A stretch of 63,989 nt of DNA, the filler included, from Diploschistes diacapsis (Eukaryota): NCBI GenBank assembly GCA_023645945.1. It is 6 parts of 6 records of this genome, joined end to end, with 100 filler letters (N's around TTAATTAATTAA, not from the genome) between each part and the next. Parts side by side here need not be neighbours in the genome. Positions count along the whole stretch, not along the records: positions 51,062 to 58,047 come from JALAIB010001324.1; 5 more parts are not named here. One strand, 5' to 3'. The stretch's first letter is position 1. Each line of letters starts with the position of its first letter. The position numbers and the translations under genes are program-made. The notes under the pieces are model-generated. The model was not told the DNA's origin, searched no databases, and was given only the letters and a program-made list of their open reading frames with translations. Below, in pieces: positions 18,256-63,989 of the stretch.

Positions 18256-19529
18256 AAGTGCATTTGTTTTTCGCTTGCGAAATTATAGCTGCGAAAGGGT
18301 CGGGAGACTTGGAATCAGACGAGAAAGGAACAGTAGTAGCCTGTTTTGTCACCACACACTTTCCTTCAGCGACGAGATTGTGAAAGCTGAGGCTGTCGGG
18401 GACTGCGGATCTCGGATCGGCGTTACATCCGGTTACAGTACGGTTTTGTTACGCCAACAGTACAAAACCATGTACGAAGCTAACATTCTTTTTTAACCGC
18501 GGACAAATACCGATTTTGGGGGCGGTCAAGGGCTCTGTTTCAGACTTGCTTTCGTTCCTTTTAGTATTAAGATCCACTTACAGAGGCTTTTTGACGTTTG
18601 CCCGAATTGCTAAGCGTGAGTACTTTGCACAGCCTCATGCCTGAGGTCCTGATGAGAAAAGACATACACAGGACAACTACCGACTTGCTTGCGGGCGAGT
18701 CGGCCTCCCAGCCTTGACCTGAGCTGATCATTGAACTGGGCTAAACAGGCATTCCTGCGACTCTTTGTGCTAAACTTCCCAGAGACAGCTAGCTTTGTTC
18801 AATCTCCGCACTAACAACTTTCCCAACACTACCCTTCTCGAAGCGGCATTTGAGAACGAGCCTTGGCAGTATCAAGCCATAGCCGCGACAAGTTGCGCAA
18901 CGAACAGCTGTTCACTCAGCAATGACTCATTCCCAACGCGAGTTACGGAGTTTCTGCAACAGCAACGATGCAACTTTGCAAACCTTGGTTGTGGCCCAGC
19001 CTCCAGCAGTCACCATTATACGCCGAGATGAGCTATCATCCAATGGCATAGGTCAATCAATTGAGCATGTTCATGGTCTTGAGACACAACTAACTGAACC
19101 TCCCTAAGGAATGAGATTGACAAGCTTTCGCCAAGGCCTCAAAGGCTCCTATTGAGAATCCATGCAGCTTACCCACTCTGTTCAAATTGGGCAAGGATGA
19201 GGGGGGGACGAACTTCGCCTGGCGTTAAGCTTCGGAAGAAGGTCTGCCCAGTAATGACGGGCAGCTTGCAGTCGCTGTGTTCCCAAGGGTTTCGAGTAAC
19301 TGGATCGATACTTTGTAACGCAGATCCATGAGCAGGCTGTTCCGCGTGGCCTGCACGTGGAAGGCGGATGCACAAAAGCCGAAAGAAGCTTATGGATGAT
19401 ATAGTTAGCTTTATATTCATGCCAGGAGCCAAAGCTATCACTCACACACACACTCTTTTCATATCCCATCTGGCTTTGGAATTTCCATTTTACTTTCCCC
19501 TTTTTTCTGAAACAACAGTCGCCTTCAAC

Positions 19530-22500
19530 ATGGCTTCTATGATCCCGGAAAGTATCGCCGTCGTTGGCATGAGCTGTCGGTTCCCGGGTGGGGCCAACGA
19601 CCCGGAAAAGTACTGGGAATTACTAGCAGAGGGCCGTGATGCTTGGTCCAAGGTGCCATCGACGAGATGGAACGAGGAAGCCTTCTACCATCCAGATCCT
19701 GGAATGAACGGTGCAACTAGTCATCGGGGAGGGTACTTCCTCGATCAAGACTTGAGCGCTTTCGACCCCTCCTTTTTCGGCATTTCTGGAGAAGAGGCAA
19801 AGGCCATGGACCCTCAGCAACGCGTTCAACTCGAGATAACCTACGAAGCTCTCGAAAATGCTGGCATCCCGATGGAAAAGCTTCCGGGCTCGAAAACGGC
19901 CGTATATATCGCCCTCTTCAGCCGTGACTATGACCGTATTGGATATAAGGATATTGGTGCCATGTCCAAGTATCACATGGTCGGGACAGGAGACGCTATC
20001 CTCTCCAATCGAATTTCATACGCCTTTGACCTGCGGGGTCCGTCGATGACCATTGACACTGGATGTTCAGGCAGCTTAGTTGGCCTGCATCAGGCTTGTC
20101 AGAGTCTTCGACTTGGCGAATCGAACTTGGCGCTTGTGGGTGCCAGCAACCTCATTTTATCCCCAGACCAGCTCATTCCCATGAGTCTTGCTCGGTAAGT
20201 CCGCAAATCTTTGATGACGCTTAAGCGCTAACCGTGCGCAGCTTCCTCAGCGACAAGGGACATTGTTATTCCTTTGACAGCCGTGGGGACGGCTACGGCA
20301 GAGGCGAGGGCGTGGCTATGGTCGTTCTCAAGCGGCTCAGCGATGCACTGGCCGCGGGGGACAACATTCGTGCCATTGTACGCAACACTGGGATCAACCA
20401 AGACGGGAAAACGCCAACAGGCATAACTGCTCCCAGTGCAGATGCACAGGCAGACTTGATCCGACAAGTCTACGCAGAAGCTCGGTTGGACCCCCGGGAT
20501 ACCACGTACCTGGAAGCACACGGAACCGGAACCAAAGTCGGCGACATGGCAGAATTTGAATCAACAAGGGACACCTTCCGCTGCAAAGATCGAGAGCGCT
20601 CCTTGATCCTTGGGTCGGTCAAATCAAGCATCGGACACTTGGAGTCGGCGTCTGGAATTGCAGGCTTGATCAAGACAGTCTTGATGTTTGAAAGGGGCTT
20701 CGTCGTGCCAAATCTGCATTATCGATCTCCGAAGCCGGACATTGACTACGATGCAAATAATATGAGGGTGACTCCGACCGCGTCGAGTGAACACAGAGCT
20801 TTTCTGACACATATTATTAGATTCCTAGCAAACTTCAGTCCCTAAAATCCATCACCGATGGGGTGCACCGAGCCTCCATCAACGGATTTGGATATGGCGG
20901 TGCCAACGGACATGTCATTCTAGATTCGAGTGCTTCACTGGGTTTGCAACAGCGAAACAGTTCACGTCGCAAAAACCTTCACGGTAAACATTCTCATGTT
21001 AACGGCATCACCGAGGGTACGGCCAACGGAACTTCCTACAACAAACGATCTACAAATGGCTCTTCTCACTCGGATCAAGCGAACGGCTTCGGCCACTTGA
21101 TAACCTTTACCGCCAAGTCTGAGGCTTCGCTACGCCAAATGCTCAAGAACTTTGGAGCATGGGCGGATGGACGAGAGATTACGGAAGAAGATCTCGTGAA
21201 CCTCTCGTATACACTTTGTGCGCGAAGGTCAATCTTCCCTTGGAGGAGCAGTGTTCTTGTCCAAGATTCGGACGAGCTCAGACAAGCACTGGGTGGAAAC
21301 GACATGGCCATTACCAAGTCTTCGAGCAATCCACGCGTCACCTTTGTCTTTACAGGTCAAGGTGCGCAATGGACTGGAATGGGGCGAGAACTTCTCCAGG
21401 TCGAGTCCGAGTTCGGCAACTCGCTCAGGAAATCTGACAGTATTTTGCGGGGACTGGGCGCTGAGTATTGCCTCATCGAAGAACTTGAAATGGAGGAGCC
21501 TGAATCGCGACTGAATGAAAGCTGGCTGGCCCAGCCTGCATCAACTGCACTACAGATTGCTTTGGTGGACTTGCTGCGCCAACTGGGTGTTAAGCCGACC
21601 ATGGTGCTTGGCCACTCCAGTGGTGAGATTGCAGGAGCGTATGCTGTCGGGGCTCTATCGCATCACTCGGCGCTCAAAGCCTCTTACGAAAGGAGTGCTC
21701 TGGCTGCCATCTCCCGGAAAGTTTTGGGAAAGAAAGGCGCGATGATGGCAGTAGGCCTGGGAGAAGAAGACACCTTATCTTACATGACTGGACTGGAGCC
21801 CGGCTCGGCGACTATAGCCTGCGTGAACAGCCCTTCCAGCGTCACTGTCTCGGGTGATGATAGCGCAATACGCGCGCTGAAGGAGTTATTGGATGCCAAA
21901 TCCGTCTTTGCTCGGCAACTCAAGGTCGACACCGCCTACCACTCTCATCACATGCAAGAAATTGCCGATATATACTTTCAGGCCATGGGCGAGCTAGAAT
22001 CCAAGGATGCAAAGGTCCCATTCGTCTCCTCGGTCACCATGAAGGCAAAAACTAGGGGCTTTGGAGCCTCTTACTGGGTTCAGAACCTTGTTTCACCGGT
22101 CAGGTTCTCAGATGCGCTGGCTGAGGCTTCAAGATCAGGCGCAACGACGAACTCGACAACCACCTACATCGAAATAGGACCTCACTCTGCCCTGCTTGGT
22201 CCCATACGCCAAACTCTTGCTGCTGCTGCGTCAGGTACGGCTTTCAAATATGTCCCAACGTTGCTCCGTAACAAGAACGCCGTTGGCTCCATCCTGGAAT
22301 CGGCAGGGAAACTCTTCGACGGTGGCCACGGGGTGGATCTTCGCTCCATGCACGGTTTGGGAGGTTACGAAGGCAAACGTCTCCTGCTAAACGATTTGCC
22401 AACTTATTCATGGGATCGTTCCAATCACTACTGGCGCGAGTCTCGCCTCAGTCGAGACCATCGCTTCCGAAAGCATGCCTACCACGACTTGCTGGGGGTC

Positions 22501-25500
22501 AGAGTCGTGGACACTGCGCCTACCGAGCCAGCTTGGAGACATTTCATTTCGCTCGACTCCCATCCTTGGCTGAGCGACCATGTTATTGAGAAAGCTATGA
22601 TCTTCCCTGGCGCTGGCTATCTATGCATGGCCCTCGAAGGCCTCAAGCAGCTTGCTGAGGAGCAAGGCCTACACGCGAGGATGTCCAGATTCATCTTCCG
22701 CGATGTCTCGTTCTTGAAGGCATTGATCATCCCTGAAAACAAACAGCGGGTTGAAATGATCATGAGCTTCGCCTCCAGAGAGGTGACAAGCGAGAAGGAC
22801 ATGCTGGGATGGGAAGATTTCCGTATCCGAACCATTACACCTGACGGAGCCTGGTCGGATCTCTGCAAGGGCCGCATCGCTCTGGAGCTCGACGAACTTA
22901 CTGGAAGCGGCGATTTCGAATCCCAGCAGCAATGGGTGAATCGTGATCAGGTCAACCTTTTCAATAGCGTTGCCAGCGCTTGCTCAAACAGTGCGGTTCT
23001 GAATACGCACTACTCAGAATGTGAGGCAGCTGGAAATGTCTACGGGCCGTTATTCGCCTTGGTGGAGGATTTGAAGATTGCCGGGTCATCTGCCTTGGCC
23101 AAGGTCACTGCTCCAGATGTTGCATCCATTATGCCATACCGCCATATGAGTCCTCATTTAATTCACCCAACGACTCTTGACAATATCATACAGATAAGTC
23201 TTCCTCTGTTCTACCGTGTCTGCACAAAAGGCGCTGCCATGCCAGTCTACATTGAAGAGATCGTGCTTTCAGCCGCACAAAGCAGCAACCTGGGTTCAGC
23301 TCACGAGGTTGCATGTGTATTGAATGCAGCTGGGCAGCGATCCGGATTCGCTGATTTTGTAGCCGTGCAACGAGGACTGCAAGGTCAGGTTCTCCCTACG
23401 GTCATGATCAAAAGCCAAGAGCTGAGGGGCCTTGGGGATATCTCTGCATCAGGAGATGCTGAGGAACGGCCTGAGAGCATGGTTTCCAGGATGGAATGGC
23501 GGCCTGACATTTCTCTTGGTGATTTCCAGAAAGTCATTCCCATCAAGAACTCGGAAGAGGTCAGCACCGGTACACTATCGCTTGCCCGGAAAGACATTCG
23601 TCTTGAGCAGGTTACTGCTCTGTATATGGATACGGTTGTCAAAGATTTGGCAGCGTCCCAAGCGCCTGTTACAAAGCCCCATCTTCGCCAGCTTCTGGCG
23701 TGGATGAAGACGTATCTCGAGTCCGATAATGCCCAGAATCTTCTTAAGATGGCGGATGCTTCGACGCAAGATCTGCTGCACGATGAGGATGGAGAGCTGG
23801 GCATCGAAGGCGAAGCCACCATCCGCCTTGGCCAGCTTCTTTCTCAGGTTTTGACTGGCGAAACCGAGCCGCTATCCGTACTGCTTCAAGAAAACATGCT
23901 GTACCGTCTTTACGCCGATGATGCCACTACGATCTGTGACAATCACTTACAGACCTACCTGAAGCATCTTACCTTCAAGAAGCCCTATCTAAAGGTCCTT
24001 GAAATTGGTGCTGGAACTGGAGAAACCAGTTTGTCGCTCCTTCAAGCCCACTCAGCAAATTCAAACCTTTACTTCAGCCGCTATGATTACACTGATATTT
24101 CTTCCGGTTTCTTCGAAAACGCAAAGACCAAGTTTGCGCAATGGGCCGATATCATGCGCTTCAAGACTCTCAACGCTGAGAAGGACCCGGCCACCCAAGG
24201 ATTCGAAGAGGAAGCCTACGATCTGATCATTGCTTCGAATGTGATTCACGCCACGAGTTCCGTCAGCACCGCGCTCAAGCATGTCTCTAAGCTACTGAAG
24301 CCAAACGGGCAATTCTGTCTCCTGGAAATGACAAGACTGCACCCCTACTGTATGCTAGTGTACGGTGTGCTTCCAGGTTGGTGGGCGGGCTCAGAGGATG
24401 GTCGGGACGCCGGGCCGCTCCTCACCACAGAACAGTGGTCTTCCAGGCTGGCGGCAGTCGGCCTCGACCTCCACTACACCATCGACGATGTGACTGGTCA
24501 AGGCCACAGGTCTTCCCTTCTCATTAGCGACAAAGTCCCCGCGATCACTAGCCAAAGTCTACCAAGGATTCGCATTATCGATGACAAACAGTCGGATAGC
24601 TTGATCCCAAGTCTAGCGACCAGCCTGCTGGAGCAGTTTGCGGCCAAAGGACTCGTTGCTTCTATGTGCGATTGGCCAACGAATGCCGAGGTCGACGACT
24701 CAATTTACGTTGTGCTGGATGTTAACAGAAAGCCCGTGATCCGAAGCACGCTCGGTCAGTATCGATGCGCCTCGTATCTCTTAACCAAGGCTACTCGCAT
24801 GCTCTGGATTGCCGGTGGTCTGGACGAAAGAGCGGAACTGGAAGGTGCGCGCGGGCTGGCAACTGGCGTGGTCAGGACTGCTCGCTCGGAAAATGACGAT
24901 CTCAAAGCTGCGCTGCTGACACTGGAGCCGGACGCTCTCTCCGGTCCCAGCAATATCTCATCGGCTGCCTATGATATCATCTCAAGCGTGTTCGCAGACT
25001 CCGAGAAGGGCGATAGAGATGTAGATTACATACTTCGTGATGGTAAGCTCTTCATCCCAAGAATGCTTCCGGAGCAGCGAATGAACAAATTGGCCCTTGT
25101 CAAGAGTAAGCCAACCATGGAAGTTGCTCCGTTTCATCGAGATGGTCTTCCGCTCAAGCTTGGCATTGAGAAGATTGGCCTACTTGATACGTTGAGCTTC
25201 TTTGAGGACACTGATGTTGTAGAAAACGGCCTCAAACCCGATGAGGTGCAAATCCAGGTCTTCGCCTGCGGTGTCAATTTCAAAGACGTCTTCGTAGCGT
25301 TGGGTCAAATGAAGGCTACGACAAACATGACTGGCGAGTGCGCCGGAGTCATCGCCAAGGTTGGATCCGACGTCCCAGGCACCGTCAAAGTCGGCGACCG
25401 CGTGTGCGCCCTCAACGCCACGCCTTATGCCAGCATGGCTCGCGTCCATTATCAGAACACTGCGCCTATCCCGGAATCTATGCCCTTCACCACGGCTGCT

Positions 25501-28500
25501 TCCATACCCATCGTGTTTGCAACTGCGTACGAAGGCTTGATTAACGTAGCTCGTCTCTCGGCAGGGCAGAGTGTTTTGATTCCGTCTGCTAGCGGTGGCG
25601 TCGGTCAGGCCGCGATTCAAATTGCTAGACATGTTGGCGCAAACATCTTCGCTACCGTCGGTAGCAACGCCAAGCGTCAATTGCTCATCGACCAATTCCG
25701 CATTAATCCCGACCACATCTTCTCCAGCCGATCGCGGCGTTTCAAGGAAGGTCTGATGCACTTGACCCAAGGTCAAGGCGTGGACGTTGTCCTCAACTCG
25801 ACTTCCGGAGAGATGCTGGCTGATATGTGGAGCTGCCTGGCGTCCTTCGGTACGTTTGTGGAGATTGGGAAGACCGACATCTACAAAAAGGGTAACCTCA
25901 ACATGGGCAGATTCGACGATAACGTGACCTTCGCGGCCGTTGACCTGAGTCTCATGGGCAAGCACAAACAGCCGCGAGTAAATGTCCTGTTGTCTCAGGT
26001 CATGGAAATGTTTGCAGCCGGACACCTCTCTCCCGCCGATCCCACTACCGTCATGGAGCTCGGGGATATCGAGAAAGCCTTCCGATTGATTCAAGCGCGC
26101 AAGCACACTGGCAAGATCGTGCTCGACGCAAGCCTCGGCGTGAAGGTAAAGACGGTGCGGGAAGAAAAGACAGCGCCGCTAAAACTACGTGCTGATGGCA
26201 CTTACATCATCACCGGTGGTTTAGGAGATCTTGCCGGACACATGTCCAGGTCTATGGCCAAGCATGGCGCTGGAAACATCGTACTCCTGTCAAGGAGAGC
26301 CATCGAGGCAGCGCGAGAGGAGAGTTTAAAGAACGAGTTCAAGTCTATGGGCGCTAATCTGCATATCATGCGAGGAGATGTTACCTCTCGAGGCAGTCTC
26401 GCCAAGGTGATCGACTTTTGCAGGGCGAACCTGCCTCCCATTAGGGGTCTTATCCAGGGGGCTATGGTTCTCAAGGTAAGGTCGGTATTGCAATCAGTGA
26501 TCTGGCTAATATTTTGTAGGATGACATGCTGGTCAACATGACCATGGAGAACTTCGAAGCGGCCTTGAAGCCCAAGGTCGACGGAACCAAGAACCTGCTT
26601 GCTGCTCTTGACGGTCTTAAGTTGGATTTCTTCCTCTGTCTCTCTTCACTGGCCAGTATTATCGGCACCTCTGGCCAAGCTAATTATGTTGCCGCAAACA
26701 CCTACATGGACTACCTGGCTCACACCTGTCCAAATTCCGACATCCCCGTCGTCGCGCTCAATGTGGGCATGTTGGAAGACTCAAACGTCATTGCCGGACA
26801 CCAAGATATCATCACCAACCTGTTGAGAATGGGATACGCTCCGCTCAAAGTACAAGAATTCATCTCGTTCGTCGAGTACCTTATCAAGCCGGAGAACTTT
26901 GGCAAGACGGGCAAGCAAATCGCTATCGGAGCTAACGGCGCTTCCCTGTCTGTCAACCCCATCGTGGGCAAGCACGCCATGTTCCGTGCTCTGCGGAACG
27001 AGGCGGAAGACCAATTGGCTACTGCCGCCAACCAAGGATTCAAGGATATAAAAGACGTGATCCTTCCCGGCATGGACGCACAGCAGGTGTCAGAGATCAT
27101 CCACAACGCTGTCAAGGGGAAAATAGCAACTCTGCTGGCGATTAAGGACGAGGAGATTGACGACGATTGTCCTATCCGGGAACTAGGAATGGATTCATTG
27201 ATCACGATCGAGTTGAAGAACTGGGTCACTGGTAAGTTCCAGGCAAATCTGGTGACAAGCGAGATCATCGATGCTGGCAATCTATCTGCGTTGACGGGCA
27301 TGGTTGCTTCAAAGTCGGAATTGGTTAAGGAGAAGGAGAGCAGGGAGGGCAAGGAAGCCAAGGGCGAGGAGAAGGCTACTGTTCAGGAGACGAAGAAGCC
27401 AGTGGTTAAACATGATGAGGGGAAGACTCTCAAGCAGCAAGGAGTCAAACCGCAAGATATGAAGTTGCAGGAAACTCGACGAGAGCGATTCAAACAACAG
27501 GACGTACAGAAGTACACAGGTCTTACACTCTCGGAAGTTGGACTCACGGACCAAGGGCTGCCGAACATGCCTTTGCCCGAACTTCAAGCGACCATGAACT
27601 TCTTCTCCAACTCGGTCGGGCACTTCTGCTCGACATCCGAGCAAGTCAAGCTGCAAGCGGAAATCGATGATTTCCTTCACCCTGGCGGTGCTGGAGAGGA
27701 GTTGCAATCTCGACTTGTTGCTCGTATGGACGATCCTACAATCGAAGAATGGCAGAATCAGCTTTACGTCGACTATGTATACATGCGCGTGCGACCTCCA
27801 GTCTATCCTTTCCAAGCGTTCTCAAGCTGGTTCTTAGAGACCAGGCCACGGCATACGCAAGCCGAGCGTGCAGCAATCATGACAGTCACCGCAGCAGCCT
27901 TTGATAAGAAGCTCAAGATGGGACTAGTCAAGACGGATATTCTGAACGACGAGCCTCTGGATATGTCGACGTCGCGGTGGATCTTTGGATCTGTTCGCGA
28001 GCCGCACACGGGAGTGGACGTCGCGCGCAAATACGAGTGCCATGACCACATAGCCGTTCTGAGAAAGGGACATGTGTTCAAGGTAATGCTGAAGCGCGAC
28101 GATGGGCAGGACGTAGGGTTCGGAGAGCTCAAGGCAACATTCGGGGACATTCTTTCGATGCCTTTGGACGAATCTGAATCTGTGGCTGTCCTAACCGGCA
28201 CAGATAGAAATGACTGGGCCATGGTGAGTTCAGCGTAATCTGGATGACATTTTTCAACAATACATTTAAGCTAACATCAACAGATCCGCTCTGACTTCAT
28301 CTCCTCTTCCTCCCCCAACGCCAGCCTCCTCCAAACGGTCGAGTCCGCTACTTTCGCCGTTTGTCTAGATGATGCCCGCCCCTCTACCCCAACTGAGGCA
28401 GCGAACCACTTCCTCCTGCAGGGCTCTGCGAACCGCTGGTCCGACAAGGTAACCCAGCTCATAATCTGCGCAAACAGCATGAGCGGCGCAACATGGGAGC

Positions 28501-29600: not shown

Positions 29601-29700
29601 NNNNNNNNNNNNNNNNNNNNNNNNNNNNNNNNNNNNNNNNNNNNTTAATTAATTAANNNNNNNNNNNNNNNNNNNNNNNNNNNNNNNNNNNNNNNNNNNN
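29601..29700. other. Artificial contig spacer
   Basis: N44-TTAATTAATTAA-N44, with stops in all six frames. Confidence 0.98.
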
Positions 29701-36768: not shown

Positions 36769-36868
36769 NNNNNNNNNNNNNNNNNNNNNNNNNNNNNNNN
36801 NNNNNNNNNNNNTTAATTAATTAANNNNNNNNNNNNNNNNNNNNNNNNNNNNNNNNNNNNNNNNNNNN
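36769..36868. other. Artificial contig spacer
   Basis: N44-TTAATTAATTAA-N44. Confidence 0.98.
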
Positions 36869-43872: not shown

Positions 43873-43972
43873 NNNNNNNNNNNNNNNNNNNNNNNNNNNN
43901 NNNNNNNNNNNNNNNNTTAATTAATTAANNNNNNNNNNNNNNNNNNNNNNNNNNNNNNNNNNNNNNNNNNNN
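43873..43972. other. Artificial contig spacer
   Basis: N44-TTAATTAATTAA-N44. Confidence 0.98.
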
Positions 43973-50961: not shown

Positions 50962-51061
50962 NNNNNNNNNNNNNNNNNNNNNNNNNNNNNNNNNNNNNNN
51001 NNNNNTTAATTAATTAANNNNNNNNNNNNNNNNNNNNNNNNNNNNNNNNNNNNNNNNNNNN
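50962..51061. other. Artificial contig spacer
   Basis: N44-TTAATTAATTAA-N44. Confidence 0.98.
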
Positions 51062-52027
51062 CCTCCCCCGTTTCCCCAATCCAGTCCCTCGCTCCATCAA
51101 CCGCTACCCTAGCCAGCCCCTTCGCACCCCTCCTCCTCCCTCTCCTCCCAGTATCATGGCCCAAACTTCCTTCCCTCACTGCACTCGGACTCCTCTGCCC
51201 CCCACTACCGCCAGCGCTCGGGCTCCTTGGACTTAACATAGCCCCCATATTCGGCAGGCCCAGCGCGCTGGAACTTCGTGCGGGCGAGACGAGTGGGGAG
51301 GTTGGGTCGGTCGCATACTCCGAGCCCATGCTCGGGAGAACGTTGTCACCTGCGGATAGGGAGATGAAGAGGGAGAAGGGCACGAGCCAAACTTGGAGGA
51401 AGAAGAAGGATGCTATTTCGGTGAAGGAGGGGAGGGCTGGGGCGGGGCTGTAGTAGGATGGAGGCGTAACGGAGCGTGGCGGGTGCGAGAAATGCAGGAA
51501 CCAGAGGTAGTGGTTTAGGAGGACGAGGACTGTGGGCCGAAGAGAGACAGAGTGGTCAGTGGATGGGATAAGATAAAGCTTCCCCGGAGAGGAGGGGGGG
51601 AAGAGGGTATAAATTGGGAGAGAGGTAAGGAGGGCATGGTTAGGGAAGGGGAGAGACTTACGGCAGGAAACTATGAAGATGGGATCGCTCAACCGGACGA
51701 TGGGGAAGTGCCGCAGATTCTGGTAGTAGATGGCGTGGCTACCGATGCTGAGGAGGGAGAGCCAGAAGGGCAGGCGGTCGACTGCGAGAAGGAGGAGCTG
51801 GCAGATCACCACAGTGTAGATGAGGCGGACGAGAAGCTTCTTGGCGGAGACTGTGTGCTCCTCTACGAGCTCAGAAAGGTAGTAAAGGCCCGATGCTGTG
51901 GGGGTGGATTGGTTAGTTGTGGGTGTATGGACTTTGAGGTAGGAAGGAGGTGCATACCGATAGCGAGGGTGAGGAAGCCAAAGCCGAGGAGAAGCCCCAG
52001 GTAGCCAATGAAGGGGAGAATCCACAT
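51062..52027 (-). CDS. SVP26: Svp26/Erv26 (TEX261) ER-Golgi cargo adaptor, 3'-truncated
   Basis: MWILPFIGYLG...FLTLAI|ASGLYYLSELVEEHT; NHYLWF; EIASFF...VWLVPFSLFISLSAGDNVLP; two introns. Confidence 0.93.
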
Positions 52028-54556
52028 TGCAGAGTTTCGCGCGTGAGGATGTTGGAGAATGGGGTTTGAATATACATTACAAAGTAAGGTGCGTTTGTAT
52101 AAAATTCATGCCGAGGACAAGTTGCGCTACCTCATTAGAGATGAGAGAACCCGGGCCGAGCTTTTCCGGAGAAGTTGGTTATCTACACACCTCTGCTAAA
52201 TACGCCCAATCAGGCCATACTATAACCCCTTTTCAATGTTCACGGTACAGGGGTAATACAGAGAACTCAATGAGCATCTGTTCGATGTTTAGGTCTACTG
52301 AAAGGTAGCACAGTTCTTCAGGTATTTCAACAATTATATGGTTTGATCTGAAGTATTTCTAGAGCTCTGAGGTGGATATAAAGTCGTAAAAAGGGGGTAT
52401 TTGGTGTGCCATTCATTCATCACTAATTGTGGCCTGCCAATATACCGAGCGCATATCGATAATTCTTATAGAGAAGTTATTTACCTACAAGCAAACCAGC
52501 TCTTCCCAATTCTCCTCCGCCACCCTCCAAGCCCCATATTCTCACTCCGCCGTCGCTCCTCACAACCCCTGACTGGGCAACGCCCTTCTCTTCTCACCTC
52601 CCATCACCTCTTCCCTAATCGTAGCCCGTAGACAGATAGTAGCCTCTCTTTAACCTCCAGACCCGCAAACCTGCGACAATGGTGTCGATCCTCGTCGTCG
52701 CTGTGAGGCCCCTATACTGCCTGCCAGCCCATTTCCACCGAAACGTGCCCAATTCTCAGTCGTTTTTGCTGCCTATTGCTTCTAGAACTTCCCTAGCGCA
52801 TAGCGGAGACTTGCTGGTATCGCACAGCCGTCGTTAGCGCCGTCGCCGCCCGCACGGCTTCGCTGAGCCTCCGTAATCGGTCTTCGAGCCTATCCAGCAC
52901 TCGACGCTCTCGATTTGACGGCCCAATACCTTCGACGATGGTCTGGGAGTGGAAAGAGGAAGATATGAAGCTTTCACATACACAAAACGAGGTGGTGGGT
53001 GGGAAGATGGGGTCGCTGTCCGCCATGACGGAGGAGAAGGGGGTATACAGAACACAATGAATACTCGCTCATACCTACTGCTTTCTCTCTGAGACTCACC
53101 TTTTGTACTTCTGATCATTGCGCGCTCACCTGAATCTCTCCTCACCCAGTAGTTGTGATGTAAGGCCGCTTTGCACCCTGCGCAGGCCTGGATCGGGGCC
53201 ACCCTCAGTGCGCAATCAATACCACCTACCTGTAGTCGTGCCATATACCATTCTACTGCCCTCACCTTCCACGATCCAATGCGCCTACTCCGCGACGTCC
53301 TACGGGCGTGGTGGTGCCGTGATGCGCGCTCCCCCTTTTTCCCAAGCCCTCACATCCTTCGTGCTCAATTACGGGCGCACACCCGTGTTCGCTGCCGCCA
53401 CACCCAAGCCACCCCTAAACGGTATAGTTTGACAGGCGGAACCGCAGTTCAAGGGCATGCTAACCCCTTTTCATAGGTCGTGAGCGAAGATTATCCCAAG
53501 AGTGCCCGTAAGACGGCGAGAATACTTAAGCGATTTGCGATCGTGATTCCTTTTGTTCCGCACCTTTTGCTAGATCTGCTTCATGCTTCACAGCTTCTGC
53601 TACTAGCTTCATTGGTTCCCTGCCCCAGTTTATACTGCTTCTTGCCTCGCGGCTCTTTTCTGACAACGCTTGCCCACCGCTCAAGCGCATATCGCGACTT
53701 CGCCTGTCAGCAACATCGACAAACCCCCTTGCTGCCATCAGGCTTGCTTCTGTGGTCCGGTATCCAAGATGCCGGGACTCCGAAACAGTGTGGTCGAATG
53801 GCCACAGTACCCGTAAGCATTCCCTCTTCACTGATGCTCTTCTTGCTTCTCCTCTATGCCCACTTTTCGACTTGTAGTCGTAGATGGTCGTCGGCGCTGC
53901 TGGGGGGTGTCTTGGACGGTCGGTCGGTCATCGTCTTCGATTGTGTATCCATCAAGGATCATATGGATGCTTGCAAGGACTTGGTCGTGGAGACTGGTTC
54001 TGGGACAGAGGAAAAGAGCTTGGACCTGGACTATCACATTGGCCTTGGGAATACACCTTCACACTGCTACTGGAACACATCACACTGGTGCTAAGACCTA
54101 CCCGCACTCCGCCATGGAACCATGTCATGCCGCCCTGGATGTGTGCCTTCACACTACCATTGGAGCTTATGGTGCCGACCTTGGGCTTGCCTTCACACCA
54201 CCACTGATGCGTCTGATCACTCACCATCATGCCGAAGCATACTGCGAGGGCCAAACGTTGTCTAGCGCACATCCTCCCCCCTTGAGATGTCGAAGCATGC
54301 GTCGAGTATCTATCAAGGTGTATCACGTGACCTTACTCACCAGGAGCACTTGGCCGGTAGATAGTTGTGGTTCCTGGACGTCCTCAGCAGCACGGCGCCT
54401 TCGATCTTGGGGGTTCACTGAGCGGCTTCTCAATCCATTTGGGCAACCTGCCAGTAACCTCCACAACCTCTTCGACAACACACCTGTCTCGTAGCCTCGT
54501 AGTCTCGTAGCTGTAGCTGTCATGGGACGGATCACGAATACTAACTGGTTAATAGG

Positions 54557-55222
54557 TTGGCTGCTGTCGCCACTGGGATACCTATGGTGGCACCATGGTG
54601 GCCCTTCGCACCTCCGACTCCGGCGGCTGGGAGAGACTGGGCAATGCAAAGCACCCTCTCCCAGCAGATCATGATGGTCGGCGTGGCACGTCGCCCGTTC
54701 CCGGAGCAGGCTCTGCCCTGCCCGAGGACTCGTGCCAGCTTCCCAGAGTGTTCTGGAATCCCCGTTCCCCTGGAGCAATTGGGGCGCTGCCGACGATCTG
54801 TCGCGCCTCCTGGGATGACCGCTCCCACTGTCGCCTTCCCTGGTGACAGTCAGATCCCGGGACCAAGCGCCGGCACCGCCTTCCCGAGTCGACCGAGGAC
54901 ATACAACCTCGAGGAGATCCTGCTGTTCCCGCGCGTGATCACCTGCGCCGAGGTCGACCAGGGACGGAAGCCGGTTTTCAAGGCGGCCAGGCGAACGAAC
55001 GAGAACCTGGAGAAGGCGCGCGGCCTTGCTCTCCGGGCACGCTACGTCGACCTTGTCGGCAAGACAAGGCGGGAGCTCGCCCCACGTGGCATCAAGTCCT
55101 GCATGAAGGGCGCAGGCGGCCGTCCCCAGAACCCGCCAGCCAAGTCTGTTCTGTGGGGTCGCTCGGCCAATCCGCAGCACCTTCGTAGGCACATGGGGCG
55201 AGGCCACGCCTTCTACCAGTGA
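54557..55222 (+). CDS. Orphan basic protein or terminal exon (~210 aa) upstream of the structured repeat arrays
   Basis: 221-codon open frame starting just after a CTAAC...TAG acceptor (54541-54555); GC3-rich codons in the 3' half; first ATG at 54584. Confidence 0.45.
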   Translation: MAAVATGIPMVAPWWPFAPPTPAAGRDWAMQSTLSQQIMMVGVARRPFPEQALPCPRTRASFPECSGIPVPLEQLGRCRRSVAPPGMTAPTVAFPGDSQIPGPSAGTAFPSRPRTYNLEEILLFPRVITCAEVDQGRKPVFKAARRTNENLEKARGLALRARYVDLVGKTRRELAPRGIKSCMKGAGGRPQNPPAKSVLWGRSANPQHLRRHMGRGHAFYQ

Positions 55223-55234
55223 TCGGTAGAAGGA

Positions 55235-55981
55235 CTCCGACAGCCTGGAGTAAGGGGCCAGGCTTGTCTTATCGGAGGATACCCTGTTCTTCTCTTTCGC
55301 TGTCCAATGTTCTGGAGTCAGGGGCCAGAACTGTCATGACGGACGATACCCTTTGCCTCTTCTTGTCGACTCTCCAAACTTCCGGAGTAAGGGGCCGGAA
55401 GCGACACCACGGAGGTTACCCTGCCTTCTCCTCTTTCTCCCTCTCGACTTCTCCTTCTCGACTCTCCAACGTTCTGGACTAAGGGGCCAGAACCGCCATC
55501 CTGGAGGTTACCCTGTCCTTCTTCTCTCCCTTCCCTCCCCCAGCACTTCTTCTTCTCGCTTCTCGGACATTTCGGAGTCAGGGGCCGAAATCGACACAGC
55601 CGAGGATACCCTCTGTCTTCTCTTCTCGACACTCCAACATTCCGGAGTAAGGGGCCGGAATCGCCACAACGGAGGATACTCTGTCTTTCTTCCCTCGCTT
55701 CTCCAACGTTCTGGATTTAGGGGCCAGAACCGACACAACGGAGGATACCCTGGAGCGGTCGTCTTGGTTCGCACCAGAGACCTCGACGCCGCATAGCCAG
55801 TTCGACATCTGGTTTTCTCTGTCCCATCCTCGGAAATCAGGGGTCCGAGGTGTCACAAGGGACGAAACCCTCGACCAGCCGTCTTGGTCGCTCCAGCAGA
55901 ATCGACAAGTCACCATCTGCTGCTCTCGACATCCCATGCTTGGAAGTAAGGGGTCCAAGCTGTCACAAGGGAAGATACCCT
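55235..55981 (+). repeat. Tandem array 1: nine 51-nt structured modules separated by mostly pyrimidine-rich spacers
   Basis: Units start at 55235, 55302, 55372, 55464, 55562, 55632, 55701, 55821, 55931; conserved loop ANTNAGGGG, covarying stems. Confidence 0.9.
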
Positions 55982-56020
55982 GGTTTCGGAGCGGCCAATG
56001 TGGCAGAATCAGGGTTGGAC

Positions 56021-57090
56021 AAGTGCCCGGGGATGGGTCTCAATGCTCGTGTCATTGAGGTGGCTGCTACCAAGGAAAGGCTTTGGGAAAAGTCGGGTGG
56101 GAGCAGCCGAGGAGACAAGCGGTCAGGGGTGACACCAGGTCTAGGATGGAAGTGCCCGGTAATGGGATTCGGCGCTCGTGTTCGTCGTCTCGTCAGCTGC
56201 CGAGGAGGGCTGTTGGAGCCAGGCGAGCTGATGGGGAAGCGGTCGGGCTGTGACACTGGGGTCTGGGATGGAAGTGCCCGGTCACGGGGCCTCATTGCTC
56301 GTGCCAATGAGGTGACTGCTGCCAGGGAAGGGCTTTGGGAAAAGCCGGGCGGTAGCAGTCGGAGGAGGTGCTGGGTGGAGGATCGAAGTGCCCGGACATG
56401 GGATTCGATGCTCGTGTCATCGTCTAGTCAGCTGCCATGGAGGGCTGCTGCAGCCAGGCGAGCTGGTGGGGAGAGTGGTGGTGGTGCTATCGTCGGAGTC
56501 GAGGGAAGAAGTGCCCGGGTATGGGATTCGACGCTCGTGTCGTCGTCTCGTCAGCTGCCATGGAGGGCTGCTGGAGCCAGGCGAGCTGATGGGGAAGCGG
56601 CCAATGTGGCAGTATCAGGGTTGGACAAGTGCCCGGTTAGGGGGTCTCATTGCTCGTGCCAATGAGGTGGCCCGCTACCAGGGAAGGGCTTCGAGAGAAG
56701 TCGGGCGGTAGCGGTCGGAGGACGCGTCTGGTGGAGGGTGGAAGTGCCCGGATAAGGGATTCGGCGCTCGTGTCGTCGTCTAATCAGCTGCCGCGGAGGG
56801 CTGTCTCAGAGCCAGGCGAGCTGATGGGGTAGCGGTCAGGCTGTGACACTAGGTCTAGGATAGTAGTGCCCGGTGATGGGATTCGGCGCTCGTGTCGTCG
56901 TCTCGTCGGTTTCCACGGAGGGCTGTCTTGGAGCCAGGAGAGCCGACGGGGTGAGCGGTCCAGTGACATTTGGGAGGAGGACAAGTGGCCGGATATGGCA
57001 GCCAGGGACTTGGAAAGCGGCCGAGTGTGGCGATGGGGTGGAGGATGAAGCGCCCGAGGTGGGACGTGGTGCTTGCAGTCACTGCGTGGC
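56021..57090 (+). repeat. Tandem array 2: eight full and two degenerate ~120-nt multi-hairpin modules of two subtypes
   Basis: AAGTGCCCGG-led units at 56021, 56150, 56272, 56386, 56509, 56627, 56742, 56864 (degenerate at 56983, 57048); conserved CTCGTGY loop. Confidence 0.9.
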
Positions 57091-58047
57091 CAGCTAATCG
57101 GGACTGACGGCCTGGTGAGTACAACTTGTGGCAACACCATAGGATATGGACTAACCTGAGAGTAGAGGGTCGTTTCGGGAGGGTTTCTGTTGGCGAGTAG
57201 GGGTTGGAGTCTCGACTCCCTAATCTGTAATCTGTAGTCGGGAGTCTGGCGCTTGGGGTCTATCGTCCATAGTCTGGGTCGGTCGTCCATAGTCTAGGGC
57301 CTCGAGTCTGTCGCTTACGCTTCGGCATTGGCTTTGGCTCTGGCGGCGCTGAGGCTGGTATGTTGCGCTGCTCCTTGCCACACGTGAGCGAGGAGGCTGG
57401 GGGCGATCAGTTCCCCTTCACCTCGCCTGTAAATGTTAGATTGCCTGGCAAACTGGAAAGGGAGTACGCAGTCTACTTCTATGGAGTATGCGAGTAGAGG
57501 AGGCAGCGTTTGTCGCAATAAAATCTTTTTCTTCATGCGTGTGCCACTTTGTGTTCACTGTAGGCGTAGATTGTGTCCCACTCCCCCTGAATTGCTGTTC
57601 CCTCGGTACTTTCTCCCCACACCACATCCGGTAAATCCAATCCATATCCTCGTTTAACCCTTTTGAGGATCTTCGCAAACCCTATCGCAAACCCTACTCG
57701 CCTACCTATACAGCAACACCACCACAACGACTTCATTTCTACTAGTCACTCAACACAACATTTTATGATCTAGCAATGTGCTCTGTACAGGGGTCACGTC
57801 ATTTCAATACCTACCCAAATTAAACTATCCGCGCCCAAACTCATTTCAACATCAACACCAACATCTTTGCACAATCACATCCTCGCATCCTCCATTCTTC
57901 CATCTTCCATTCTCGCATTCTCGCATTCTTGCATCTCGCACTCTCGCACCCGCGCGCCTGCGCACCCTTTCCACGAAAACGTCCCCCAAATGTCTCGCCC
58001 AGAAGACACACTGTGCGCGCCTCCACCCACCCCATCCCCCATAATCC

Positions 58048-58147
58048 NNNNNNNNNNNNNNNNNNNNNNNNNNNNNNNNNNNNNNNNNNNNTTAATTAAT
58101 TAANNNNNNNNNNNNNNNNNNNNNNNNNNNNNNNNNNNNNNNNNNNN
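58048..58147. other. Artificial contig spacer
   Basis: N44-TTAATTAATTAA-N44. Confidence 0.98.
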
Positions 58148-58500
58148 TTTTAAATGCGCGAGTAATTTTTTAAATATTAATATATTATTATCATTTTAGG
58201 ATTTATAAATAATCGTTAATATTAGATTCTATCAGAACCGAATTATTACCATACGATATAGTTATTATTGAGAAAGATCGAATATAAGATGAAAATAATA
58301 ATTTAAAATGGCCGGAATCTGGAAGTGGCCGGAATCCCCGTGAAACACGTTATAATGCCAAAACGATTCGGCCTTTTAAATATTTATAATAAAAGAATGT
58401 TATCGTACGAAAGGTGGAAATGTTAAGAAATATATTTTACGAAGGTACAGGGATTGTGAGCAGCTTTATGGTGTGATCCGTTATATGGTGAAACACGTTA
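58148..58500. mobile_element. AT-rich (RIP-like) pogo/Fot1-type DNA transposon ends
   Basis: TIR with internal direct repeat TGGCCGGAATC x2 ending ...GTGAAACACGT|TA at 58350-58352; second GTGAAACACGT|TA at 58488-58500; TpA-rich flanks. Confidence 0.65.
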
Positions 58501-63147: not shown

Positions 63148-63989
63148 TAACGCGTTTGAGGGTCTATCGGGCTATCCCCCCCCCCTCTCCGGTCACTTCA
63201 AATCATTACCGCATTCATTTTACAGTTCGTACATATGACTTATTCGTTATAATCGGAAGCTAATCGATATATTTCGTATCTACTTTCTTTTCTCGATATT
63301 ATTAAAAGGAGAGGATATTTTTTTGGCGTCATAAATGGTTTCGAATTCAATGGATCCGAATAATGTACTTAATGATTTTTAGAATTTCGTTTATATTACA
63401 TGTAAAACTCTTTTGATTTAATTTGTTATTGGATTTACTTTTTTTATAACGTGTTTAATGAGGAACTCGGCCACCCTGAGAACTCGGTTACCTCAAATCA
63501 CTACCGCCCTTATTCTACGGTTTATATATATAATCTATCCGTTATAACCGAATTTAATCGATTGTTATGATCTCTATCTCTATAAAGTAGACTGAACATC
63601 ACGAAAAGTTTTTGGCGGCGAAACACCGCGAAAATCCGCGAAGTTGGCGAAACTGGCGAAACCGGCGAGATGGGCGACAGATAATACGTTTAAGCGACTT
63701 GCCGTGTTTCGCCAAAAGGTTTGGCGAAACACGGCAAAACCGGCGAAACCGGCGAAACTGACGAAACTAGCAAAACAAGCGAAACCGGCGAAGATGACGA
63801 GGACAATCATTTTTTTACTAATATATTACGTAAGCAAAAAAATTAATAATTATAATATAATATTAATTAAATAATAATTATATAACGTATACGTATAGCG
63901 AGCGGATACTTATAGCGAACGGATACTTCCTATCCGATTTTACGAACTTTTAATTTTATATTAATTTTCTACGCGTATGATTATAGAAT
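63148..63989. mobile_element. Nest of AT-rich DNA transposon relics, including three pogo/Fot1-like left ends
   Basis: TA|ACGC at 63148; TA|ACGT at 63447 with GAACTCGGYYACC x2; TA|ACGT at 63883 with TATAGCGARCGGATACTT x2; strong TpA enrichment. Confidence 0.7.
63615..63793. repeat. Clusters of short GGCGAAAC-like direct repeats (probable subterminal repeats)
   Basis: More than a dozen (C/T)GGCGAAA-like 9-mers in two clusters inside AT-rich DNA. Confidence 0.75.

Follow-up and report, generated by a model that had tools for sequence, protein, structure and literature searches.

The window analysed here is the whole 63,989-nt stretch of Diploschistes diacapsis DNA, a chain of separate contigs joined by five linkers of the form N44-TTAATTAATTAA-N44 (29601-29700, 36769-36868, 43873-43972, 50962-51061 and 58048-58147). 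Genes that flank a linker are therefore not genome neighbours. Two arrays of repeated modules are found on one fungal contig of 6,986 nt (51062-58047). On its minus strand this contig also encodes Erv26 (Pfam E = 4.7e-61), in a gene whose introns are short and have ACTAAC-type branch points. The array locus lies about 2 kb from one end of the contig. Its features are as follows.

54815-55222, + strand: small open reading frame (ORF) of 135 codons, with ATG at 54815 and stop TGA at 55220-55222, the stop being 12 nt before unit 1 of array 1
55235-55981, + strand: array 1, nine 51-nt modules and eight spacers, located by a regular-expression scan for the loop
56021-57100, + strand: array 2, in tandem and adjoining array 1, eight clear modules of about 114-129 nt in two alternating types, with degenerate copies from 56983
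56021, 56272 and 56627, + strand: starts of the type A modules of array 2
56150, 56386, 56509, 56742 and 56864, + strand: starts of the type B modules of array 2
57115-57165, + strand: candidate spliceosomal intron of 51 nt, by its motifs GTGAGT ... ACTAAC ... TAG
57517-57522, + strand: AATAAA, a possible polyadenylation signal by sequence, downstream of both arrays

The small ORF upstream of the arrays has a coding-like GC1/2/3 pattern. An exhaustive search of 1.8 billion representatives gave a single distant homologue, P0007, a 148-aa sequence on a 1,704-nt ENA contig, with 39% identity over 107 residues (library-wide E = 2.3e-4, pairwise E = 8e-15). A word-index search returned only the small ORF itself, and a profile search gave no homologue beyond P0007. 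No Pfam match, PDB match or viral-contig relative was found for the small ORF, and the structure model of its protein is of low confidence (pLDDT 47.8). In the region from 52027 to 58047, 29 ORFs on both strands display no protein family match (best E = 0.084). A tRNA search found none. The candidate intron is the sole canonical + strand candidate of the contig and is situated downstream of array 2. Taken together, these features point to a small gene whose structured 3′ region, at about 2.3 kb, would be exceptionally long, or else to a separate non-coding RNA.

Several other elements are present in the window. Downstream of the arrays there is a tandem repeat, TCGCAAACCCTA(C) x2.3, at 57673-57701, and a CT-rich tract, CATTCTCG x9, at 57878-57948, just upstream of an ATG at 57990. 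This ATG may start a further + strand gene that is cut by the contig end. Tandem repeats also occur near the end of the window (GGCGAAACC x7.7 at 63723-63792, and a 17-nt unit x2.6 at 63884-63928). The other contigs encode a highly reducing polyketide synthase, a GT61 glycosyltransferase and an EF-hand/MscS protein. With Erv26 and its introns, this gene content indicates a eukaryotic source, most probably a filamentous ascomycete. The polyketide synthase region (19368-28238), which has KS-C/AT/DH/MT/ER/KR domains in a 1,892-codon ORF and neighbouring ORFs, is probably a secondary-metabolite cluster.

Units and covariation of array 1

Each unit of array 1 splits as 4+3+7+9+7+9+4+4+4 = 51 nt, i.e., the 5′ strand of P1, junction J1/2, the 5′ strand of P2, the apical loop, the 3′ strand of P2, junction J2/1, the 3′ strand of P1 (P1′), a linker and a tail. 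P1, of 4-5 bp, encloses P2, of 7 bp. The units are listed with their bit scores from R1, a covariance model built from the nine of them.

55235-55285, + strand: unit 1, P1 CTCC/GGAG, P2 AGCCTGG/CCAGGCT, loop AGTAAGGGG, tail CCCT, 69.7 bits
55302-55352, + strand: unit 2, P1 GTCC/GGAC, P2 GTTCTGG/CCAGAAC, 74.0 bits
55372-55422, + strand: unit 3, P2 CTTCCGG/CCGGAAG, 72.6 bits
55464-55514, + strand: unit 4, P2 GTTCTGG/CCAGAAC, 69.0 bits
55562-55612, + strand: unit 5, P1 CTCGG/CCGAG, P2 ATTTCGG/CCGAAAT, 70.6 bits
55632-55682, + strand: unit 6, P2 ATTCCGG/CCGGAAT, tail CTCT, 74.8 bits
55701-55751, + strand: unit 7, P2 GTTCTGG/CCAGAAC, loop ATTTAGGGG, 75.8 bits
55821-55871, + strand: unit 8, P1 GTCCC/GGGAC, P2 CCTCGGA/TCCGAGG, 66.5 bits
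55931-55981, + strand: unit 9, P1 TCCC/GGGA, P2 GCTTGGA/TCCAAGC, 69.0 bits

Nine fixed 51-nt units in this layout had been described in an earlier note made from the sequence, and the regular-expression scan finds all nine, on the + strand. The periods between unit starts are 67, 70, 92, 98, 70, 69, 120 and 110, which agrees with the range of 67-120 nt given before; two of the eight are multiples of three, the remainder being non-multiples as that note had said of most. The spacers measure 16, 19, 41, 47, 19, 18, 69 and 59 nt, and in the first six C+T amounts to 79-89%. Pairwise identity between units is 29-44 of 51 positions (57-86%), and there are no indels within units. The seven distinct P2 arm pairs listed in the earlier note, as well as its P1 variants (CTCC/GGAG, GTCC/GGAC, CTCGG/CCGAG and GTCCC/GGGAC), are all present in the units. 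In unit 9, the P1 first drawn includes an A-A mismatch, and a shift one base inward, to TCCC/GGGA, improves the pairing.

The loop, also reported earlier to be conserved, is found as ANTNAGGGG in all nine units, with an invariant core of U-N-A-G-G-G-G. The tail is CCCT in eight units and CTCT in unit 6. J1/2 reads N-A-N, with a third base that is C or U in eight of the nine units, otherwise A, and never G. The linker after P1′ is G-(A/T)-(T/A)-A (G-W-W-A) without exception. A few bases upstream of P1, seven of the nine units display TCTCGAC or one of its variants (TCTCGCT, TGTCGAC, CCTCGCT), a motif that is present twice more in the 41-nt spacer; the true repeat unit may thus be about 60 nt.

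The loop core, written T-N-A-G-G-G, differs only at N from the fungal telomere repeat. The loop of unit 7 (55715-55723) contains an exact TTAGGG, with the contig end 2 kb away, and the tail, as (A)CCCT, resembles the complementary telomere-repeat strand. This likeness of loop and tail may be a coincidence.

Built from the invariant columns, a 39-nt degenerate pattern has nine matches in the window, with 0.00 expected from 100 shuffles. The earlier note had proposed an Infernal model and an Rfam comparison: the nine units alone score with R1 (66.5-75.8 bits), the rest of the 64-kb window and 18 loci fetched from elsewhere reaching at most 14.6 bits, and no Rfam family matches them even at E<=10. 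With Rfam 15 at the gathering score there are no matches in the whole window, and at E<=10 a search of 54500-58500 gave only a chance match to the MS2 operator, on another contig. The invariant-column pattern of array 1 has no match in metagenome, viral or prokaryotic contigs, nor does an anchor pattern of array 2 in viral contigs. The 18 fetched loci are metagenome contigs that match the array 2 pattern once each; these were rejected as chance matches because R1 finds no module in them; in 3 of the 18 blastn aligned the 30-37-nt pattern site and no more, and in the others it aligned nothing. A blastn search of plasmids and phages with both arrays was without match, and the use of a 271-codon array ORF as a protein query for homologous arrays found nothing. 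Such an array in fungi is not described in the open-access literature searched. The element matches no catalogued family.

To assay covariation, the nine units were aligned with P1, P2 and the pseudoknot discussed below as the structure (15 pairs, 135 cells), and compared with 500 column shuffles. Standard pairs occupy 99.3% of the 135 cells, with 97% of cells paired in P1 and 100% in P2. Changes on both sides are seen in 8 of the 15 pairs (six of seven in P2 and two of four in P1; 21 cells), and no P1 or P2 pair displays a single-sided change. On four of five measures none of the 500 shuffles reached the observed value; on the fifth, further pair types, 152 of 500 did so. When the 3′ partners are slid by 1-3 columns, only 25-62% of cells pair and 0-3 pairs covary. 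RNAalifold recovers P1 and P2 unaided. Variable columns make up 16 of the 22 paired positions as against 14 of the 29 unpaired ones, and the invariant positions are located in the loop (A, U, A, GGGG), the junctions and the tail. This combination of invariant loop and tail with variable paired columns is the signature of a functional fold and not of a neutral minisatellite.

It should be noted that all of the array 1 covariation is drawn from paralogous units of a single locus, so that shared ancestry or gene conversion between the units of a neutral tandem repeat has to be weighed as its source. A 141-nt higher-order duplication, 74% identical, does take in the unit pairs u2-u3 and u5-u6. However, such a history would not be expected to leave eight double-changed pairs and none changed on a single side in P1 and P2, with shuffles and slid registers far below the observed values, nor to keep units free of indels while the spacers vary from 16 to 69 nt, nor to cluster the invariant positions in loop and tail. 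The neutral-repeat reading is disfavoured, and we hold it to be the least probable of those considered here. P1 and P2 are supported as being under selection as a fold. The earlier note had proposed selection on an RNA fold; for P1 and P2 this stands, on the compensatory changes, the greater variability of paired columns and the absence of indels, whereas the pseudoknot is left as a possibility only.

Two other origins were tried and rejected. Transitions and transversions are about equal (260/266), which does not fit an origin by RIP. A protein-coding repeat was rejected on the grounds that only two of the eight periods are multiples of three, that the array ORFs have no Pfam match and that the 271-codon array ORF is without protein relatives.

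Loop, tail, strand and array 2

AGGG in the loop is complementary to the tail in nine of nine units. The single G-U among these pairings is in unit 6, where the earlier note had placed one on the + strand owing to the CTCT variant. In this pseudoknot helix three pairs are invariant, one has a one-sided change and none covaries. Since the AGGG and CCCT strands are invariant, covariation says nothing on the pseudoknot. We estimate that two segments as short as the 9-nt loop and the 8-nt tail would contain complementary 4-nt stretches by chance in about 1 case of 8. A loop-to-tail pseudoknot is possible from the sequences; of the pairing proposed in the earlier note, the complementarity holds throughout, with pairs that are near-invariant. 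The invariant U-N-A followed by GGGG presumably resembles a U-turn, which presents the next bases for pairing.

Nearest-neighbour folding of array 1 is unremarkable. Folding z-scores of single units range from -1.34 to +0.25; the MFE structure contains both P1 and P2 in six of nine units and P2 in eight of nine. With 15-nt flanks, P2 has a probability of at least 0.9 in four of nine units and P1 of at least 0.25 in only three of nine, and AGGG in the loop is predicted to be unpaired, with a probability of at least 0.9, in four of nine. The whole of array 1 folds worse than its dinucleotide shuffles on both strands (z = +2.07 on the + strand and +2.50 on the other). Being short, P1 could be held only with the help of a tertiary contact or a protein.

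None of the 99 cells of P1 and P2 contains a G-U pair, the 98 paired cells being all Watson-Crick, and consequently these helices fit either strand, as RNA or as DNA, equally well. An RNA helix would not usually lack G-U in 99 cells, and a DNA hairpin agrees with this equally well. The + strand assignment of array 1 is made from the single G-U of unit 6 and from the neighbouring array 2.

Modules of array 2 consist of a AAGTGCCCGG..GGG mini-hairpin with a GNNA-like loop, a hairpin with the loop CTCGTG, and then a long hairpin. Compensatory changes are found in their stems, and G-U pairs are frequent on the + strand, accounting for 22 of the 140 cells of type B and 9 of the 99 of type A. The type B consensus folds at -33.2 kcal/mol with 28 pairs on the + strand, as against -18.6 with 20 pairs and C-A mismatches on the minus strand; the whole array reaches an MFE of -480 as + strand and of -330 as minus strand. 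Array 2 is best read as + strand RNA because of these G-U pairs and its better folding on that strand. It has no Rfam family match. Sequence is shared between the spacers of array 2 and the last two of array 1, and on this account both arrays are taken as one + strand unit. Pairing of the CU-rich spacers of array 1 with the G-rich array 2 was considered and rejected, in that duplex energies equal those obtained against shuffled array 2. An engineered stem-loop tag array was likewise rejected: the linkers are natural-looking, array 2 is rich in G-U and a plasmid search gave no match.

These results bear on whether the modules could act at the DNA level, as single-stranded DNA hairpins of a minisatellite, formed during replication or recombination or left over from a rolling-circle or foldback mobile element, and with no RNA function. 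The Watson-Crick pairing of P1 and P2, equal on both strands and in DNA, the ordinary RNA nearest-neighbour stability and the position of the locus about 2 kb from a contig end are in its favour. However, a conserved 9-nt loop, fixed asymmetric junctions and a conserved tail are hard to explain in this way, and a 7-bp stem with a 9-nt loop makes a poor cruciform. No relic of a transposase, Rep or helicase is present among the 29 flanking ORFs, the module is absent from the rest of the 64-kb window, and the adjoining array 2 is strand-asymmetric and G-U rich, as expected for RNA. A purely DNA-level role is in our judgment quite improbable. From the sequence evidence array 1 is most likely a new repeated folded-RNA element.

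Known structured RNAs and possible roles

Two papers on the xrRNA-D/LT elements of plant viruses (dianthoviruses and poleroviruses) describe an order of P1, a short J1/2, P2 and an apical loop that pairs with a strand 3′ of P1 (PMC7668246, PMC6299227). These elements, of 44 nt and upward, are found at the start of 3′ regions and have pseudoknots of 4-5 bp that covary, the 3′ half of the loop being the conserved docking part. A J1/2 G, conserved in more than 97%, pairs with a conserved C of the loop part L2B, and a conserved A-G-pyrimidine follows directly after P1′ (PMC7668246, PMC6299227).

On that description, array 1 units share the order of elements, the size (51 as against about 44 nt), a possible 4-bp pseudoknot, the position at the head of a 3′ region, and a P1 and P2 that covary with little conservation of sequence. 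They differ in having no J1/2 G, no loop partner for it and no A-G-pyrimidine linker, in a J2/1 of 9 nt, in a pseudoknot that does not covary, in being on a cellular fungal contig, and in their nine copies where tandem pairs are reported for viruses. By its sequence the module is thus not a member of the plant-virus family, but by analogy it may work like one. The likeness to xrRNAs drawn in the earlier note is retained as regards topology and size; the nucleotides that define the viral class are missing, and no Rfam family matches.

Function as an exonuclease roadblock can be considered on this basis. Xrn1, degrading the small ORF after decapping, would stall at the ring formed by P1 and the loop-tail pairing, and would leave a stable 3′ fragment that contains array 2. 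Order and size match the viral elements, and the array begins 12 nt past a stop codon and heads a 3′ region, the place of such elements in viruses. A topological role is suggested by junctions whose length is fixed and whose sequence varies; the third J1/2 base (C or U in eight of nine) could pair with the invariant and otherwise unused loop G33, and an intron in the 3′ region, if the candidate is real, would mark the mRNA for decay. Against this stand the differences from the viral elements given above, among them the missing J1/2 G and A-G-pyrimidine, the 9-nt J2/1 and a pseudoknot that is invariant where those of viruses covary. There is also no Rfam match at E<=10, nine copies far exceed the viral tandem pairs, and a search of the open-access literature gave no cellular example. 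We consider a roadblock unlikely, but rank it second, as the main rival of the platform reading given below. The extended proposal, that nine ring-forming pseudoknots directly after the stop codon act like viral xrRNAs, stop Xrn1 and so turn a decaying cellular mRNA into a stable structured non-coding RNA comprising array 2, is rather unlikely. If true, it would be the first cellular, non-viral xrRNA array, with one locus yielding both an mRNA and a long non-coding RNA.

A second Xrn1-stalling motif, of the coremin type, consists of two successive hairpins of 3-4 bp, the first with a YGAD loop, and a conserved 9-nt spacer (10.1101/522318). Array 1 resembles this description in its small units and its place at the start of a putative 3′UTR, with a tandem arrangement sometimes seen in coremin also, and in a 9-nt conserved spacer, but its helices are nested and P2 has a 9-nt loop instead of the YGAD tetraloop. 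A two-hairpin reading of array 1 was rejected: a GGAG/CCCT hairpin needs an A-C mismatch in most units and contradicts the G11-C53 covariation of units 2 and 8.

The pistol ribozyme has three helices, and its 6-bp pseudoknot involves an internal loop and not a 3′ tail. Common to it and to array 1 are a size of about 50 nt and a hairpin loop engaged in a pseudoknot, the latter only possible in array 1, so that the likeness suggested in the earlier note is topological only, with no Rfam match even at E<=10. Units that are processed, by self-cleavage or by an endonuclease, would release small RNAs of 67-120 nt. Such a role would agree with a compact fold of about 50 nt that is capable of a pseudoknot and has many invariant unpaired bases, and also with the tandem head-to-tail layout of array 1, which is typical of ribozyme-bearing satellite transcripts. 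However, none of the Rfam 15 ribozyme families matches even at E<=10, a unit contains no helices beyond the two nested ones, and the products would be heterogeneous given spacers of 16-69 nt. Processing is in our view very improbable.

Repeated stem-loop platforms are known in the A-repeats of Xist, the roX stem-loops and the iron-responsive elements of the transferrin-receptor 3′UTR. They have GC-rich structured cores, a conserved loop and covarying stems, and form a multivalent array that is read by protein. Array 1 is like them in its repeated small GC-rich structured cores, conserved loop, covarying stems and variable pyrimidine-rich linkers. It has no sequence relation to them, and differs in its nested two-helix design, fixed junctions and possible pseudoknot, and in belonging to a fungus. 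A platform, the design of these other arrays, is the mechanism that we rank first. A multivalent platform in a long 3′UTR or non-coding RNA, formed by a + strand block of modules of about 1.9 kb, is favoured from the sequence with a probability of roughly 40%.

On this favoured platform reading, array 1 would be the first half of a block of about 1.9 kb (55235-57100) of tandem + strand RNA modules that fold separately. The block starts 12 nt after the stop codon of the small ORF and would accordingly be a very long structured 3′UTR or a 3′ non-coding RNA, read from the + strand. In each module the loop AGGG would dock on the tail CCCU to give a compact, bent-over pseudoknot. The lengths of junctions, loop and linker (3, 9, 9 and 4 nt) are fixed though their sequence varies, which suggests a compact fold that is recognised whole, possibly by one trans-acting factor that binds each module as a folded unit. 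Nine copies on flexible pyrimidine linkers would then make a multivalent platform through which the transcript's stability, localisation or sequestration is set.

Bacteria and viruses have well-catalogued compact RNA folds of about 50 nt that are clearly under structural selection, but in fungal nuclear genomes such folds are, to our knowledge, very rare. The block is a credible candidate for a new structured-RNA array in a fungus, and if transcribed it would represent a new class of eukaryotic structured RNA. The nine natural stem variants are a ready series of compensatory mutations, and the array may offer a natural test of virus-like exonuclease roadblocks against multivalent stem-loop platforms in long cellular 3′UTRs.
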